Of a stretch of 64,000 bases of DNA, positions 4,711 to 46,200 are shown piece after piece. The position numbers were made by a program, and so were the translations under genes. Every line of letters starts with the position of its first letter. The stretch's first letter is position 1. The notes beneath the pieces were generated by a model. The model was not told where the DNA came from. It saw only the letters and a list, made by a program, of their open reading frames with translations, and made no database searches. The DNA lies in contig OY740784.1 of assembly GCA_963514005.1 (NCBI GenBank), forward strand, positions 92,814,001 to 92,878,000, written 5' to 3'. Source of the stretch: Raja brachyura (taxonomy: Eukaryota).

Positions 4711-5393
4711 TAGTTAATCTACAGTATCCTCCACTGCCAGTACATGATAATTACTTGATCTCCATTACTTCCACTTGAACTCTTGACCTCCATTACTGGG
4801 ACCTCATACACTGCCTCTTACAACTTCTCCATCCGCTTTCTCAGCCTCTGAGACATTCTGCATTTTACGACACATCTTGAGAGTAAGCGTGCAAAGAGCC
4901 TGCATGTGCTGCTCTAGGAAGGTCGTATTTAATCACCATTTCTATTTTACTCAAGGGAACTGATGTTTTGACAGAGCCAGCATTAACTCTCATCTCTGAT
5001 TGGTAGGTAATGGAGAACCATGGCTTGAAGCACAACCGTGCTTATAGTGAAGGTATTCCCACACACTTGATAAGGCAAGCTTTAACCCAATTCAAGATGA
5101 GGGAATAATCCATATATTTCTAAATGAGAATGGGATAAAACAACTTAGGGGTTACACATGTGCCCTGCTTTTATCCTCCTTTGGCAGCACGACAAGCATC
5201 CCATATGGTTTCCTCATCACCTTCATAGATTCATAGATGGTTACTGCACAGAAACGAACCCTTAACATCAACCTTCCCAATGCCAACTCTAATGCCTATA
5301 TACACTAACCCCATTTTTCACATTAAGTCTGTACACAGTTTCTTGTACCTCTAAGTAATTTGGGAACTGAATCCCAGGGAAGTGCATGAAGGA

Positions 5394-6290
5394 GGGGCCC
5401 AGTGAGTTTCAGGGAAATGGGAGAACCAGGGACCCAGTGAGTTTCAGGGAAACGGGAGAACCAGGGACCCAGTGAGTTTCAGGGGAACAGGAGAACCAAG
5501 GGCCCAGTGAGTTTCAGGGGAACAGGAGAACCAGGGGTCCAGTGAGTTTCAGGGGAACAGGAGAACCAGGGACCCAGTGAGTTTCAGGGAAACGGGAGAA
5601 CCAGAGGCCCAGTGAGTTTCAGGGAAACGGGAGAACCAGGGACCCAGTGAGTTTCAGGGGAACAGGAGAACCAGGGACCCAGTGAGTTTCAGGGGAACAG
5701 GAGAACCAAGGGCCCAGTGAGTTTCAGGGAAACGGGAGAACCAAGGGCCCAGTGAGTTTCAGGGGAACGGGAGAACCAGGGGCCCAGTGAGTTTCAGGGG
5801 AACGGGAGAACCAGGGGCCCAGTGAGTTTCAGGGGAACGGGAGAACCAAGGACCCAGTGAGTTTCAGGGGAACAGGAGAACCAGGGGTCCAGTGAGTTTC
5901 AGGGGAACGGGAGAACCAGGGGCCCAGTGAGTTTCAGGGGAACAGGAGAACCAGGGGCCCAGTGAGTTTCAGGGGAACAGGAGAACCAGGGGCCCAGTGA
6001 GTTTCAGGGGAACGGGAGAACCAGGGGTCCAGTGAGTTTCAGGGGAACGGGAGAACCAGGGGCCCAGTGAGTTTCAGGGGAACAGGAGAACCAGGGGCCC
6101 AGTGAGTTTCAGGGGAACAAGAGAACCAGGGGCCCAGTGAGTTTCAGGGGAACAGGAGAACCAGGGGCCCAGTGAGTTTCAGGGGAACAGGAGAACCAGG
6201 GGCCCAGTGAGTTTCAGGGTGGTGCAGGAACCAAGGCCTCACTGAGTTTCAGGAGAGTGTGGGAACCAGAGCTTGGTTGAGTTTCTGGGA
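5394..6290. repeat. 35-bp minisatellite, about 25 copies
   Basis: Unit CCCAGTGAGTTTCAGGGGAACAGGAGAACCAGGGG recurs with period 35 (e.g. 5941 to 5976) and degenerates at both edges. Confidence 0.95.
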
Positions 6291-38212: not shown

Positions 38213-38890
38213 CAGACACTTAAATAAAACACAAGGTGCTGGAGTAACTAAGTGGGCCAGGCAGTATTTGTGGAAGGAACAGACAGACGACATTTCAGGT
38301 TGGGACCTTTCTTGAGACTGATCGGAGGGCAGAAAGCTGAAAAAGAAAGGTTGGAAGTGAGCCAAAGTCTAACAAGTGATAAGTTGATGCGGTGAGGGGA
38401 GTTTGATTGGCAGATGGGTGGAGTATATGAAAAAGATTAGAGGTGAAAAGGAGACAAAAGGTTTTCAACAAAGAAGAGGTGTGAAATGGAAAGCCAAAAC
38501 AAAAAATGTGGGTGGAAGCAGACGGGTTGGGGGGGGGGGGGGGGGGGGTGTGAAGGGAGTAAAAGGGAAATAGGGGTACAGTACAGTACGAAGGAGGGGA
38601 AAGGAGCAGCATGACTGGGGGGGGGGTGGGGTGGGGGGGTGGAGATGGTGGGAGAATGGATGTGCGGGGTGGGGGAACAAGGGAAAGAATGAGAGGAGAT
38701 AGGGGGAATATTACTTGAAGTTGGAAAAATCAATGTTCATACTGTTGAGTTGCAAAATACCCAATCGAAATATGATATGCTGTTCCTCCTGTTTGGGTGC
38801 AGCCTAACCGGCAAAGAACAGTATGGGAATGGGAAAGAAAGTTAAAATGGTAAGCAACCGGGAGATGCAGCTGTCCTTGGTGCACCGAGC
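38213..38890 (-). mobile_element. Penelope-like element 3' fragment (GIY-YIG C-terminal region and terminal repeat)
   Basis: Minus strand encodes KQEEQHIIFRLG.LQ..SMNIDF, a PLE C-terminal motif, followed by a C-rich tract and the terminal repeat with a decayed hammerhead core (~38288-38320). Confidence 0.7.
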
Positions 38891-41800
38891 AAGTGTTCAG
38901 TCTTCAGTTTTGTCTCTTTTCTCTAAAATGTCTTGCACCTCAGGCTATGATTCTTGCAGTGAATAATAGTAAGATTAAACGAGAACTTACCAGTTTGAAG
39001 TTTGATCTTTATTTTATGAGGAGTCGAGTTGAGGGACTACGTGAAGAACCCCGTACATGCGTCAATCTTCAAAGCAACGGTGTGAAATCACAGCAAATAA
39101 TAACTGAAGTATAATGTAAGATAAAGACTAGAACTACCAGATGAAATCTATGAGGGCTGGGAGCGGAGGGCACGTAGTCCCTCAACTCGACTCCTCATAA
39201 AGATCAAACTTCAAACTGGTAAGTTCTCGTTTAATCTTACTATTTTACTTCGGAGTCACGTGAGTGACTACGTGAAGACTTCAAAGATCTGTGATTTCAT
39301 GCCGTGTGAAACCAGTATACACAACCACAGCTGCTTCATTGACAAATGAAGGGAAAACATTCATAATGCATACAGTCATAACATAGATGTAAAACATGCT
39401 GATGCTGTTTAAATGAAACAATAATATTTCCATCTCACCCAGATGGAACATATAACCAGAACATAAATAGAGTTAACAATACTCCTGGTTCACCAATGGG
39501 TCATTACAGATGTTTGGAGATTCATTCGATGGACCATACTCCAGCCGCAACAATGCGACCCAGCGGAACATAAATACCCTTGCTGCTGATGTTGTAGCAG
39601 CCCTGGTGGAATGAGATCTGGAAACAGAATCCATTAGTACATAACACAACTCCGTTTTCCTCATCTGGAATGCCATGAACAATACGTTCTCCCAAATTCT
39701 TTGTGACTAACAACATTGCTAGTCCAGAACTCCAAGGCTCTTGATGACCTTGACATATTGTTGTATACATGTGTGCTTACCTTACCAAAGGTCCCCTGGT
39801 ATGCCTGTGACTATTTTGAGACCAGACCCCCTTCTGGTCTGCTCAAGTATTTATAACATATTATATATTATAATTTACAGACATTATCATCCTGTACCAT
39901 CACAATTATTTAGCGACTGAACCTGCTGCACTAAACCAGTGCCAGAAGGATAACTACCTAATAAACTCCAGCCAAATTTAAGGATATAGTTGCTGCCTCC
40001 TGGTGAAATAGTGTTCACAAATATCAACATCGCATATGGCATTATACTGGTCCTGGGACCCATGTTGAAGATATCCTACCCCTTGATAACCGGTGTGGAC
40101 CCGACAGCGAGTCTTGTTTGTTACAGCCAATTCAATGAGGAAGCTTATCGAGCCAATTAATGGCCGTATAACTCCATAAGTAACAGACAATCATTTAGCA
40201 TGAACTCGAAACATTAGCAATCAATACCATTTTCCATGGAACATAAGCATAACAAACTCTCTCATCTCCGGGAAAAGAAATTCAGCCATTTGGTGCTATG
40301 CAAACACTTTGAACACATAGAAGGATAGATGTAACAACCCAAACCTTAGGGCAGTTTGTTAGACCTGCAGAACATAAATTTGAGTTTATCATGCAACATC
40401 TGATTTCCGAAGCCTCAGGCTGAACAAGCAAATTCAAGTTTAAAATAACCAATAAGGTTATATAATTATTCGCAACAAATCGGGAATCAATTAGCATAAT
40501 CACACAATAGGAACTTAAAGCCTCTTAATGACTTTATTTGAAACCTCGATTGATGAGACAAAATGGAGGTAGCCATAAAAGACCCACCTGCTCCTTTTGG
40601 CGAGAATGTATCTTTCGCCACTGCTATGCCAACTATTTTGCAACCAGTGAAATAAACATGAAACCAACATACATATGTATACACATATATTCATATTAGG
40701 TGTTCCATTGAACCAGAATTTCATAATACAGTGCAATTCAACACCAACTCTGTGTTGCCATTACCCACACTTGATGATTCTCCTGTGGCAACAAAATTAT
40801 GTAACCATTCCAGTGATTCTTTAACCGATTGCACCCTTGTGACTAACATATGCCATCACAATGCATCAACCTGAACATGAGCATGACAATATGCTTATTT
40901 GTCCAATCACTCTATAGCCCATACAATGCCCGTAGAGTCTATAAATAGTTGATACTAATAACAGAACTTTTTGGGCAAGTCATGCAAATCTGTTCCATCT
41001 CCAAACTCGAGATGATCTTTCAGCTACTTGGTAACTACCTTAAATAGCAACTGTGGCCCGATTTCCGAGCCAGTCTAGCAAGACAATCTTGGTCCTTATA
41101 CTAAACCTGTCCAATTCTAACCTGCTTGAAAACCAATATTGTACATTTTACATTTACCATTCAAAGTAACTGATAATGTCTCAATCATTTGTACTGTATA
41201 ACTAAGTATACACCTTACCAAACTGCAAGTGGTCCCTTAATTGTAGAGTAGCACAAGTCCAGTGCGTGGAACCTCTGGCCAGCTTTCATGCTGCCAGCAA
41301 CTTCAGTGAACCGCTACTGCCAAAAAAGACATGGGATACATTGTTGCCAAAACTATGAAACCTTGCTTGTTCCAATAGCTTGTGCTTCGCCCTCCAGGTT
41401 ACACCTATGGAAAAGTCTTACCTGAATAGAAGATTCGGCAGCCAACTGTAATGTCCCCCTGAAAGCGGTGTTCACTGCATATTGTGTTTGGGATGGTAAC
41501 TTTCTTGCCAGGCATAGACCTCTGACACATGCCCCGATCTCTTGGGTATGCTCTATGGCTATACCCTTAGACTCGGCGTTAAACTATACCAATCCCACAT
41601 GCTCACCTCTTACATGAGGGAGCCATAAAGCAGGCCTGTTACAAAGCCCTGCTGACACCATTTCCCATTTAGGCCATTAGCACCAATTTGCAATAGAATA
41701 AAAGGTTTACCTAACAACTACTAGAGCAGTAATGAACACTGTTTGTCCATCATCGTGACATTATTAATTTCAGCTGGTGTTAACAATGACCTAGATGGCA

Positions 41801-42199
41801 CTTACTAATTAACCATTTAACAAAATAACTGTTGCACTACTTACACACCTGAATTGCATCTATGCACTTAACAATTAATCCAACGACTAGAACTGTTTTA
41901 TACCAACAACTGTTACCAAAGTCTTATTGACTGCAATCTGTTGCCCAGGCCGGCATCATGGCCAATTGAATACCTAAAGGTAAATCCCAACATCCTACAA
42001 ATCTATTTGATAGGACTTAATCTAACTGGATAGAGGAGCCCAATTTCTCAAATATAGTTTGAGACTAGACAGCGGATTTTAGCACAAGCGCTTTTAAACT
42101 GTGTATAGTTTTCTTTGAATACTTTTGTCATCATTCTGTTATATTGCCTTATCCTAACAATGCCTCCTCATCCCCCATGATCACTGTGAATGGGAATAC

Positions 42200-42720
42200 C
42201 CTACTAAACTGCTATTCCCATAAAGCAGCCCTAACAAGGTACCCCTGGTGCCCATGAAGCAGCCCTGAACAAAGTAGCTGCTGGCCCGGACTTTCCCATA
42301 GCCCAGTATTTGCCATAGATTTGGCATTCTCATCAAGCAGCCCTGAGCAAAGGTGCTGCTGGCATAACCTCTCCAATAGGCTAGCCTACCATAACTTGGC
42401 ATTCCCTTAGAGCAGTCCTGAGCAAAGGTACTGCTGGCACCGCCTTTGCAATAGGCTAGCCTGCCATAGTTTGGTATCCCCATGAGCAGCCCTGAGCAAA
42501 GGTGCTGCTGGCACAGCCTCTCCAATAGGCTAGCCTGCCATAGCTTGGCATCCCCGTGAGCAGTCCTGAGCAAAGGTACTGCTGGCACAGCCTCTCCATC
42601 AGGCTAGCCTACCATAGCTTGGCATCCCCATTAGCAGTCCTAAACAAAGGTACTGCTGACACAGCCTTTCCCATAGGCTGGCACTGCCATAACTTGACAT
42701 TCCCATGAAGCAGCCCTACC
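42200..42720. repeat. 74-bp tandem repeat (~6-7 copies) inside the DIRS element
   Basis: gagcagccctgagcaaaggtgctgctggcacagcctctccaataggctagcctgccatagcttggcatcccc recurs at 42410, 42484, 42558 and neighbouring positions. Confidence 0.9.
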
Positions 42721-42934
42721 TAAAAGTGCTGCTCTCTAAATTAATTCCCAGAGGTGAAATCTCCCAACTTTCCCATTTGTACTGACTATTTTGTCAGTTG
42801 TCCCCATATCCTGGGGATTATTGTAGTTTGGGAACCCCATAGGTGAATTTCCCCTCACCAGGAATCCATATAAATATAATATAATATATATAAATATATA
42901 CCCACGGTACCCTCCTGGCACGCAGGCTAATGAT

Positions 42935-43295
42935 TTATGTGAATTAACCCCATTACCTGGGGACTACTGTGGTCTGGGAACCACACATATACCTGGGTTT
43001 CCCCTGCACCGGGAACCCAGCCTAACCATTTAGGTTTGTTTTAACCCCATGCGCTGGGGACTACTGCGATGTAAACCACATATATTTGGGTTTCCCCTGC
43101 ACCGGGAACCCAGCTTAACCATTTAAGTTAGTTTTACCCAATGTCCTCGGGACTACTGCGGTCGAGAACCGCATATGCTTGAGTTTATCCTCCCCGGGAA
43201 CCCAGGCTGACCGTTCAGGTCCGTTAAGCCCCATCCCCTGGGGACTACTGCGGTCTAAAACCGCACTATTCTTGGGTTTCCCCTACCCGGGAACC
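42935..43295. repeat. ~92-97-bp tandem repeat (4 copies) inside the DIRS element
   Basis: gggactactg...gggtttcccc...ccgggaaccca recurs at about 42960, 43057, 43149 and 43241. Confidence 0.85.
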
Positions 43296-46200
43296 CAACG
43301 TGTGGAGTCACTGACCGCGTTATCAGTGACTCCGATCGCGAACCCGACTTTCCCAGCTCTCCGCTTCCGCGGTCGGACCAGGGTTTTCCCCCAAAGCCCT
43401 AGGCTGGTTCCCTCGTCGGCTATCGCGAACATCCACTGCAAAAACCCCGGAGGTTCCTGCAGAGACCTAGAACAGGTAAGAAAAATAACACTTACCTGCA
43501 ACTTTTTTAGACTTACCATGGAGGAGCTGCGCTGCTCCACAGTCGTCTGCACGAAAAACGTCTGACGCCATGACGCACGAACGGCTGTACGGGGTTCTTC
43601 ACGTAGTCACTCACGTGACTCCGAAGTAAAATTTAATCATTGATTGCAACCTTAGTTAGCAGCATCAAAATGGTCTCATTATTAAAAGGTTCTCTTTCTA
43701 ATGTATATTCTCTCTAGCACTGGGCACGTCAAAGGCCTGAACCAGCCAGATTCAACCGTATACTGACCCTGTACCCCTTGATCTGCATGGTCTATTATTG
43801 CACCTGCTGATACTTAAGGCCCTCTGATTTACAGTAGTTAAATCAGTGTGTCAGTTGAATGTGCTTGCCTTCATCACATTTCGAAGGTAGGTACTGGGTC
43901 GCTCAAATAATTTACATGATGCTGGGTCTACATTATCTTAATTATTTATCACATTAGCTACATTGATGCCTGGATATTTGGAGATCAGAGGTAGAATAGT
44001 CTGCAAGGACGGATTGTACCTGAAATCAAGTATAGTAGAAAACCCACCTGAGGCATGAACAACAACCTGTAATGTTATTAACATGGGCTTTGGAATGTTA
44101 TTATTAAGACACACTATGCAATATGGCTGAGGAAGGCCAAGTAATTGCTGAGAAAGACAAGATTGGTTACCATTTTCTAGTTACAGCTTCATCTGAGTGT
44201 CAAAGTCACTGCAGCACAATGTTGAAAACATGTTTTAAATTAAGTACCACCCGCCTTATGCATCAACCAACTCTGTTTGATGTTACTTATCTGAAAATGT
44301 ATATCCTGATATGGAAATCATGATAGTAAAATAAATTCTGAAAATTGGAAAGCAGGCCAAAGAATTTATTACTCTAAAACTATGATTAAATATATTTTCT
44401 ATGGAGGTGGTGCGCATTCATCAAACTTATAACTCGCGTCTCCACCCATACTTCATCCAAAGCCTCGGCTTTGGTAAGGCCGCATTTGGAGTAGTGCATG
44501 TAATTCTTACCACCCCATTGCAGGAAAGATGTGGAAGCTTTGGAGAGGGTGCAGAGGAGGTTTACCAGAATGCTGCCTGGATTAGAGGGTTTCAGCTAAA
44601 GGAAGGTTGGATAGACTTGGATTGCATTTTATGGAATGTCGGAGACACTCGGAGCAGTCTTGCACTCATAGAAACATAGGAAATAGGTGCAGGAGTAGGC
44701 CATTCGGCCCTTCGAGCCTGCACCGCCATTCAATATGATCATGGCTGATCATCCAACTCAGTATCCTGTACCTGCCTTCTCTCCATATCCCCTGATCCCT
44801 TTAGCCACAAGGGCCACATCTAGCTCCCTCTTAAATATAGCCAATGAACTGGCCTCAACTACCTTCTGTGGCAGATAATTCCAGAGACTCACCACTGTGT
44901 GTGTGAAAAATGTTTTCCTCATCTCGGTCCTAAAGGAATTCCCCCTTATCCTTAGACTGTGACCCCTTGTTCTGGACCTCCCCAACATCGGGAACAATCT
45001 TCCTGCATCTAGCCTACCCAACCCCTTAAGAATTTTGTAAGTTTCTATAAGTTTCCCCCTCAGTCTTCTAAATTCTAGCGAGTACAAGCCAAGTCTATCC
45101 AGTCTTTCCTCATATGAAAGGCCTGACATCCCAGGAATTAGTCTGGTGAACCTTCTCTGTACCCCCTCTATGGCAAGAATGTATTTTCTCAGATTTGGAG
45201 ACCAAAACTGTACGCAATACTCCAGGTGTGGTCTCACTAAAACCCTGTACATCTGCAGTAGAACCTCCCAGCTCCTATACTCAAATCCTTTCGCTATGAA
45301 TGCTAACATACCATTTGCTTTCTTCACTGCCTGCTGCACCTGCATGCTTACTTTCAATGATTGGTGTACCATGACACCCAGGTTGCATCTCCCCTTTTCC
45401 TAATTTGCCACCATTAGGATAATAGTGTACCCTCCTGTTTTTGCCACCAAAGTGGATAACCTCACATTTATCCACATTATACTGCATCTGCCATGCATTT
45501 GCCCATTCTCCCAGCCTGTCCAAGTCACCTTACAGCCTCCTAGCATCCTCTTCACACCTAACACCAACCCCCAGCTTAGTGTCATCCGCAAACTTGGAGA
45601 TATTGCATTCAATTCCCTCGTCCAAATCATTAATATATATTGTAAATAGCTGGGGTCCCAGCAATGAGCCTTGCGGTACCCCACTAGTCACTGCCTGCCA
45701 TTCTGAAAAGGACCCGTTTACTCCTACCCTTTGTTTCCTGACTGCCAGCCAGTTCTCTATCCACATCAATACTGAACCCCCAATACCGTGTGCTTTAAGT
45801 TTTTATACTAATCTCTTATGTGGGACCTTGTCAAAAGCCTTCTGAAAGTCTAGATATAACACATCCACCGGTTCTCCCTTATCAACTCTGCTAGTTACAT
45901 CCTCGAAAAATTCTATAAGATTCGTCAGACATGATTTACCTTTCGTAAATCCATGCTGACTTTGTCTAATGATTTCACCACTCTCCAAATGTCCTGCTAT
46001 CCCATCTTTAATAACTGACTCTAACAGTTTCCCCACTACCGATGTTAGACTAACTGGTCTGTAATTCCCCGTTTTCTCTCTCCCTCCTTTTTTAAAAAGT
46101 GGGGTTACATTAGCTACCCTCCAATCCTCAGGAACTACTCGAGAATCTAAGGCGTTTGAAAAATTATCACTATGCATCCACTATTTCTGTGGCTACTTCC

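Follow-up and report, generated by a model that had tools for sequence, protein, structure and literature searches.

A gene-less DIRS1-like family of Raja brachyura, likely copied in trans by a coding family from which it probably acquired its ends

Known relatives and the class of the element

The closest described systems to the element analysed here are AcaDIRS1 and AcaDIRS2 of Aplysia, which have a short conserved inverted terminal repeat (ITR) and a long right extension (available text of PMC3266345). In that description, AcaDIRS1/2 resemble the present family, called N, in having ITRs, an ICR complementary to both termini with a 3-bp junction, ATT at each end and an HSTR motif; the ICR halves are 37 and 79 nt in N and 45-88 in AcaDIRS1. 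Unlike AcaDIRS1/2, N is without coding capacity or an RT core, and two tandem arrays fill its 5' half. TOC1 of Chlamydomonas is given as a non-autonomous version of TOC3, and TOC1 and N are alike as long non-autonomous members of the DIRS order with a partner encoding a tyrosine recombinase (YR) (PMC9940879 and PMC5613634, in the parts at hand). However, the TOC elements are PAT-like (PMC3266345, same text) whereas N is of the ITR/ICR type, and the parts of PMC9940879 and PMC5613634 describing TOC1 contain neither end capture nor a conserved hairpin, both of which are proposed for N.

Non-autonomous members of the order are thus already known from TOC1. Internal tandem repeats are reportedly present in TOC1. 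By naming convention DIRS-N1 of zebrafish is presumably a catalogued non-autonomous DIRS family, likened to N by name alone. The name itself appears in the available part of PMC5400779. A partnership like that proposed below for N is seen in the Cereba/Quinta LTR pair, where the partner is known by shared cis ends and segments are exchanged by template switching (PMC11302176, in part). Such LTR pairs are integrase-type with PBS/PPT, whereas the exchanged module of N consists of ICR, spacer and ITR and, unlike the LTR pairs, N supplies no protein. An "LTR swapping" between autonomous and non-autonomous LTR elements of soybean was reportedly described by Du et al. in 2010.

The window is a stretch of 64,000 nucleotides of the Raja brachyura assembly and contains one complete N element (Table 1). 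The ends are inverted and the ICR is complementary to both termini with a 3-bp junction overlap, as in DIRS1-like elements, rather than split direct repeats of the PAT/TOC or Ngaro type. In place of gag, RT/RNase H (RH)/methyltransferase (MT) and YR coding regions there is only decayed homology to them, and the element is therefore not an autonomous DIRS1-like member. An Rfam search of 38500-44100 gave 0 matches at E<=0.1. The element is 4.67 kb long and the coding families are 4.73-4.92 kb; most N copies without insertions measure 4.5-4.76 kb, which might hint at a size constraint, but older copies are shorter.

Table 1. Features of the N element, in positions of the window
Feature	Position	Strand	Remarks
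Whole non-autonomous DIRS1-like element (family N)	38965..43632	-	4668 bp, ATT at both ends
Left terminus	43596..43632	-	37 nt complementary to left ICR half; same sequence in families A and B
5' end region	43508..43632	-	Left ITR (sense 25-62) and two GGTAAG donor-like motifs (sense 116, 137)
93-bp tandem array	42946..43297	-	Units with 3-4 small predicted hairpins
74-bp tandem array	42251..42762	-	7 hairpin-bearing units, two predicted hairpins per unit
Decayed in-place gag remnant	41383..41693	-	Matches ~520-770 of coding elements; RT core missing downstream
Eighth hairpin 2 copy, in gag remnant	41626-41682	-	Flipped G-C pair
Decayed RNase H / methyltransferase / tyrosine recombinase region	39333..41233	-	Collinear with coding DIRS, ~50% identity
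YR HSTRAA patch	39530..39620	-	Best-kept stretch of body
ICR	39171..39278	-	Circle junction at 39242-39244; private 5-nt deletion
3' end module (ICR, spacer, right ITR, right terminus)	38965..39305	-	94% to family A in intact copies
Right terminus	38965..39043	-	79 nt complementary to right ICR half; AATAAA and recurrent TC>GA site

The sequence-only reading had described the ICR as matching both ends with one 5-nt indel, a perfect 23-bp ITR, and AAT at both ends and at the ICR junction. All three descriptions hold. The stretch 38965-39043 is matched by ICR arms 39197-39244 and 39171-39201 with 100% complementarity and one 5-nt gap, and 43596-43632 by arm 39242-39278, likewise with 100% complementarity; the two ICR halves overlap on the three nucleotides (AAT as read on the plus strand, ATT in the sense of the element) that also stand at both ends. 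The perfect ITR run is 23 nt in this copy and 38 nt in 17 of 34 copies; the 8-nt gap that shortens it and the 5-nt ICR gap are private to this copy, neither being found in any of 64 other elements.

A dispersed family that spread as non-coding sequence

Comparison of copies confirmed that they share the same dead body and constitute a non-autonomous family. Pfam found no match at cut-off in six frames of the element. The coding scraps noted earlier go beyond the HSTR motif (minus frame 3): collinearity with the RH/MT/YR region of coding DIRS elements persists over some 2 kb in the 3' half, at about 50% identity, and no RT core can be detected. The longest stop-free stretch in sense does not exceed 149 aa in 34 of 35 elements; the remaining one carries a private insertion. 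Of 85 stop triplets, 76 are common to at least 90% of 48 copies, and a 1-nt frameshift behind the HSTRAA patch is common to 57 of 61 elements; the indels of this copy, unlike these family-wide lesions, are private. Queries with the family A RT, RH/MT and gag pieces in tblastn matched 0 of 60 N elements, and the YR piece matched 2 of 60. That this copy is an ordinary autonomous element decayed after insertion, which its near-coding length might suggest, is refuted by lesions common to nearly all copies, themselves 97-99.9% alike, and is given virtually no credence. Intact reading frames in other copies, which would have told against the sequence-only reading, were not encountered among the 35 elements.

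Family N is estimated at ~580 copies, or several hundred. A body 24-mer of N has 245 exact matches in the genome, a spacer 24-mer common to N and A has 690, and a family A body 24-mer has 122. Among 40 sampled unassigned ends, 36 were N, 4 were A-type and none belonged to a third family. End branches form a ladder of subfamilies, mostly 0.016-0.03, then 0.002-0.011, then mostly <=0.002; this copy, at 0.006, falls in the middle range, and the youngest copies differ by 0.11-0.3%. The analysis showed that N spread in successive subfamilies as non-coding sequence while keeping ITRs, ICR and ATT ends, with several rounds of amplification of dispersed, lesion-sharing copies after coding was lost. 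The proposal of a family mobilised in trans is supported by these shared lesions and, at the level of sequence, by a likely helper, family A. A comparison of divergence in ends and body (3' end 0.8%, body 1.4-1.8%, 5' end 2.1%) was set aside because the copies had been chosen by best match to the 3' end.

The insertions of N use a single ATT target, as had been anticipated (a single AAT on the other strand) for empty sites. ATT stands at both ends in 56 of 59 elements with no 4-6 bp duplication, and of 20 N sites whose repeat flank allowed a test, 17 give an ungapped alignment of flank, 3 nt and flank, 11 of them with exact ATT; empty sites thus hold one copy of the trinucleotide and no further duplication. 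A contig of run X1 starting at 43630 is counted with this evidence. No data set that contains the element is recorded as RNA; run X18, taken for RNA by guess, has contigs over part of the 5' end and was not counted as evidence of expression. In related species, coded A-I, 39-70% of the element's words occur.

Origin of the ends and the likely helper

The sequence-only reading had suggested that ICR-templated homogenisation of the ends could contribute. A paired C>T change at ICR and terminus (r62), present in 29 of 83 elements, shows that the two are coupled, and templating accounts for the match between ICR and termini. It does not account for the match of N ends to those of family A, which is better explained by exchange with the helper. 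Since r62 is a CpG site and no flanking marker moved along with it, it is only a possible mark of recent conversion from family A. A recurrent 2-nt TC>GA change was found in 62 termini and 10 ICRs, never in both.

The last 355 bp of N are 94% identical to family A and 74-88% to six families B-G, whereas the N body is 49-53% (~50%) identical to families A-F, rows C_L059 and G_L058, both rearranged in body, being excluded from the body figures. The identity of N to A steps abruptly from 50% to 97% at the ICR. The 5' end region is less A-like than the 3' end, at 84-89% (~87%) to typical A copies and 64-76% to families B-F. For the N stretch just upstream of the ICR, family D (61-63%) is a closer match than A (54-57%). 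An A/T site there, considered as a sign of a second exchange, was rejected, the N state being the ancestral one of families D and F. In the end tree N and A group together (100/97), and the N stem measures 0.015, resting on ~5 substitutions. In the body tree the N stem is 0.8 and N+A was rejected (p-AU 0.0079), in a test that involves this 0.8-long branch and rejected N+D by the same margin. The two trees disagree, which suggests that capture of the ends from A followed the death of the body, and N probably acquired them by recombination.

The same data can be read as an offshoot of the A lineage without exchange, in which strong purifying selection held the ends while the body decayed neutrally. 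In every family constraint is greatest at the ends (74-88% alike between families with bodies 62-78% alike), the N ends and A ends are each monophyletic (87/92), and an AU test on the YR-tail/UTR alone left N+A unrejected (p 0.175). This account is unlikely, however, since the ratio of body to end stem is ~3-5 elsewhere and 0.8/0.015 for N, the spacer, which is 57-81% identical between families, is 90-91% identical between N and A, the step at the ICR is abrupt, and the N body has changed only a few percent since the oldest sampled copies inserted. Among coding pairs whose ends are 87-92% identical, distances at fourfold sites are as low as 0.06-0.28.

Family A is the likely source of the proteins that copy N in trans, judged from sequence comparison. 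The inference of A as helper has two grounds: no other family shares the 3' module in full, variable spacer included, and A has very young intact copies. Its proteins give RVT_1, weak Dam and Phage_integrase matches, both ORFs are open in 19 of 24 young copies, and the closest pairs are 0.02% apart; the genome thus holds an intact partner with matching cis ends. N and A also share a target bias (ATT, then T-T-A). Family B has the same left 37 nt as A and N and is also young, and could therefore help too. Mobilisation by several DIRS families, or mainly by another such as B, with A-like ends a historical relic, would also fit an ICR ~90% conserved across families and a DIRS-1 RT that acts in trans (PMC7192593, in part). 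Against it, spacer and ITR core are common to N and A only, and the youngest N subfamily has the paired C>T state of young A, which at a CpG may be parallel; this reading seems improbable, a shade more so than descent without exchange. The coding families were drawn from 5354 YR candidates, of which the best 95 were scored and 20 fetched, and a coding family nearer to the N body may therefore lie outside the sample.

The favoured reading, a gene-less family likely copied by A in trans and carrying A ends probably gained by recombination, is held at roughly 75%. Following the DIRS-1 model (PMC7192593 and PMC3266345, in the parts available), N RNA would be reverse transcribed by the helper RT, the ends rebuilt on the ICR and the DNA circularised, and the circle integrated at ATT by the helper YR. 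PMC7192593 states that DIRS has no known primer, and its direct demonstration of trans action concerns RT alone. The ICR-to-end module, together with the 5' end, would have passed from the A lineage to an old lineage that was dead by then, the likeliest route being a template switch between RNAs handled together, shortly before the oldest sampled N copies inserted.

Tandem arrays, a candidate cis signal and significance

The two tandem arrays noted earlier in the 5' half are confirmed at 42251-42733 (74 bp x 6.4) and 42946-43297 (93 bp x 3.8), and both are present family-wide with varying unit number. The 74-bp unit derives from ~520-590 of coding elements, in the 5' gag region; a homologue of the 93-bp unit was sought in six coding families and none was found (z -2 to 0.2). 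The 93-bp array has a folding z of -3.7, and the 74-bp array as a whole folds no better than shuffles (z -1.4). Within the 74-bp unit, hairpin 1 is only 69% paired, and hairpin 2 is paired in 97.5% of cells across 21 sequences with two-sided changes at 3 of 8 pairs. Whole-structure covariation exceeds 500 of 500 shuffles, and for the two measures counting pairs or types the observed value is reached by 24-32 of 500 shuffles, for a structure drawn from the same, related, sequences on which it was tested.

This predicted gag-derived hairpin, retained in place and repeated sevenfold in N, may be a cis signal for the helper Gag/RT, which is the least certain step of the proposed mechanism. A lack of function is quite possible: pairing could result from self-templated correction of DIRS cDNA, which is single-stranded (PMC7192593, in part), together with protein constraint in coding families, where the hairpin overlaps a P..GL-type peptide; expansion of the arrays by slippage, with varying unit numbers, fits this as well. 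Function is favoured by the persistence of hairpin 2 across five or six coding families, where flips fall at different pairs, and in the non-coding in-place remnant of N, which shows a G-C flip amid ~50% decay. The boldest form of the favoured reading, that N is a helper-tracking parasite joining an ancient dead body, the ICR-to-end module of an active family and a multiplied Gag/RT-recruiting hairpin, and outnumbering its helper ~4-5 to 1, is put forward only tentatively and is on balance doubtful. On that reading, if true, no packaging-type signal of ICR-type DIRS elements would have been mapped before this hairpin, and the TC>GA slip, biased to the terminus, would show the place at which RT rebuilds the right end.

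The gene-less N is a natural deletion experiment, and what it kept, the ends, ICR, spacer and one gag-region hairpin, are candidate cis needs. The recurring slip at the right terminus offers a sequence read-out for testing the end-rebuilding model. N points to a likely helper, the very young and intact family A, and suggests exchange of ends between parasite and helper. It provides in-genome evidence that an animal can support an entire DIRS cycle in trans.

The window element and family N

The element in the window belongs to N, a real non-autonomous DIRS family. It has the cis features that define a DIRS1-like element but not the coding capacity, and none of its frames matched Pfam at the cut-off. 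The sequence-only reading had described an ICR (internal complementary region) matching both ends with one 5-nt indel, and two tandem arrays in the 5' half; both descriptions were confirmed. The trinucleotide shared by the ends and the ICR junction also held, being ATT in element sense and the overlap of the two ICR halves. The perfect 23-bp inverted terminal repeat (ITR) stands for this copy, in which an 8-nt gap limits the perfect stretch; the ITR core of the family is 38 nt. Among 64 other fetched elements none has this 8-nt ITR gap, and none has the 5-nt gap in the ICR.

Features mapped in the window
Feature	Position	Strand	Remarks
DIRS element, family N	38965-43632	minus	ATT at both ends in element sense
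ICR	39171-39278	minus	complementary to 79-nt right terminus and 37-nt left terminus; halves share 3 nt
74-bp and 93-bp tandem arrays	element 5' half	minus	
17-nt inverted pair	39289-39305 and 39077-39093		flanks the ICR and the spacer (between ICR and right ITR)
35-bp tandem array	5393-6219		23.6 copies, 95% matches; unrelated to the element
Very abundant repeat	44510-44800		in all four runs compared; probably a SINE or LINE end

GCTTTGAAG-like text lies before the ICR and again before the right ITR. This text and the 17-nt inverted pair are possible structures or strand-transfer sites.

The genome searched comprises 2.7 Gb. The N 3' end and the N body, used as queries, each gave 40 scored places at 95-99% identity, and both element ends were found in 34 of the 39 fetched places. 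A 24-mer from the N body has 245 matches, one from the body of the coding-intact family A has 122, and a spacer 24-mer common to N and A has 690. On contig C1 the 76 spacer matches consist of 23 known N, 7 known A and 46 others, 40 of which were fetched (36 N, 4 A-type). Applying this N share of ~84% to the 690 matches gives an estimate of ~580 N ends in the genome, for exact matches only.

The lesions are inherited family-wide: of the 85 stop triplets in the 3' body of the window copy, 76 each recur in 90% or more of 48 N copies, and a 1-nt shift behind the HSTR motif is found in 57 of 61 elements. RT, RH/MT and gag pieces of A found no match in 60 N elements. DNA-level profiles showed the 3' 2 kb of N to be collinear with RH/MT/YR of coding elements and a gag remnant at sense ~1940-2250, with no RT core between them. 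N copies are mostly 4.5-4.76 kb long, near the 4.73-4.92 kb of coding families because the arrays occupy the 5' half. The N tree (64 rows) is a ladder in which end branches of old copies are mostly 0.016-0.03. The window copy falls in a middle group (end branch 0.006), and members of the youngest clade (support 98) are 0.11-0.3% apart. The ladder and the inherited lesions together bear out the proposed non-autonomous family; N therefore kept moving after its genes were lost.

Family A and the origin of the N ends

In a PF00589 search for coding DIRS the best 95 of 5354 candidates were scored, and the 20 loci fetched sort into seven families, A-G. In family A a single long frame matches RVT_1 and, weakly, Dam, and there is also a tyrosine recombinase (YR) frame. 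Both are open in 19 of 24 young copies, the closest pairs being 0.02% apart. In A (L057:2956-7084; L120-L138) gag-like and RT/RH/MT sequences share one ~1050-aa frame, followed by the YR frame, which has no start codon near its beginning; GGTAAG motifs occur at ~119, 137 and 1378. A 4772-bp subfamily (L122, L124-L131, L134-L136), with both frames open and closest pairs 0.02-0.04% apart, has probably transposed very recently. L063 carries a 1563-bp A-derived element that kept both ends and lost most of the coding region.

Over its last 355 bp N shares 94% identity with A and 74-88% with the other sampled families; the 5' 130 bp are 84-89% identical to typical A copies and 64-76% to B-F. We infer that N is likely moved by the proteins of A. 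For Dictyostelium DIRS, PMC7192593 found the ICR essential, with the RT working in trans.

The N body is only 49-53% identical to each of A-F, with a step up to 97% at the ICR. The end tree, which rests on few substitutions, unites N and A (support 100/97), the stem of N measuring 0.015. The body tree rejects N+A (p-AU 0.0079), with the caveats that its N stem is 0.8 long and that N+D is rejected equally; the short region alone does not reject N+A (p 0.175). Coding pairs with 87-92% end identity have fourfold-site distances of 0.06-0.28, and the family pair A-D, with 85% end identity, about 1.05. Spacers of old N and old A are nearly identical. Because the two trees disagree, identity steps up at the ICR, the fourfold distances differ in this way and N is nearer D than A immediately upstream of the ICR, capture of the N end module from the A lineage fits best, within an incomplete sample of coding families. 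Comparable exchange between LTR element pairs is described in PMC11302176 and reportedly also by Du et al. (2010).

A single C>T change is carried by ICR and terminus alike in 29 elements (15 N and 14 A) out of 83, and in N it marks the youngest clade. The pairing is consistent with ICR templating of the ends. In N the pair may come either from A or from parallel gain at a CpG. The variant TC>GA, at positions 21-22 of the right terminus, was matched exactly 72 times, by 62 termini and 10 ICRs, never by both together. It is scattered over the N tree (6/64 rows) and occurs in one A derivative. The change would seem to arise anew during copying, and its CTC-rich context would allow a slip-and-realign error.

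Hairpins of the 74-bp array

Position ~520-590 of coding elements is the origin of the 74-bp unit, in which folding predicts two hairpins. They were compared across 21 sequences, 8 taken from the window copy and 13 from families A-F. Pairing reaches 97.5% in hairpin 2, where one pair occurs as C-G, U-A and G-C and two others are flipped, and 69% in hairpin 1. Covariation exceeded 500 of 500 shuffles, for a structure drawn from these same related sequences, and in two pair-counting measures 24-32 of 500 shuffles reached the observed value. Taken as a whole, the 74-bp array shows no better folding than its shuffles, unlike the 93-bp array (z -3.7). The preferred reading, at about even odds, is a candidate cis role for the 74-bp hairpins, for example Gag recruitment.

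Target sites and integration

T at +2 follows 49 of 59 N and 21 of 23 A insertions, and adenine at +3 follows 35 and 19, respectively. N and A have a common target bias, and the target is therefore like the element's own first six bases. Adenine is also enriched at -8/-7 (29/59) and +8 (31/59) around the ATT core in N and A flanks, like symmetric recombinase contacts.

Repeat flanks in fetched loci made 20 of 60 N insertions testable. In 17 of the 20 the commonest class of alignment had flank, 3 nt and flank ungapped, with an exact ATT in 11 reconstructed sites, in keeping with the single ATT/AAT expected of empty sites. The pattern agrees with the 3-bp model in PMC3266345. A contig of sequencing run X1 matches the right flank of the window element from 43630 on, preceded by 242 other letters, and one of run X4 crosses the element-flank junction; seen on the right side, the two contigs probably represent an empty and a filled allele from two organisms. 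L028:1247-6567 is a DIRS 5321 bp long that belongs to an eighth family and is nested in an N copy where N has a single ATT; its long frames, of 633, 721 and 364 aa, are separate. In L025 an end related to this DIRS adjoins a shortened N copy.

Known non-autonomous elements of the DIRS order include TOC1 (PMC9940879 and PMC5613634) and zebrafish DIRS-N1, by name only (PMC5400779); the portions of PMC9210276 and PMC8498967 available describe none. Searches of open literature, a scope without subscription journals, Repbase reports and supplements, turned up no ICR-type non-autonomous family described as having a named helper, captured ends or a hairpin conserved in the gag region. Family N gives testable leads on the cis signals of DIRS elements.
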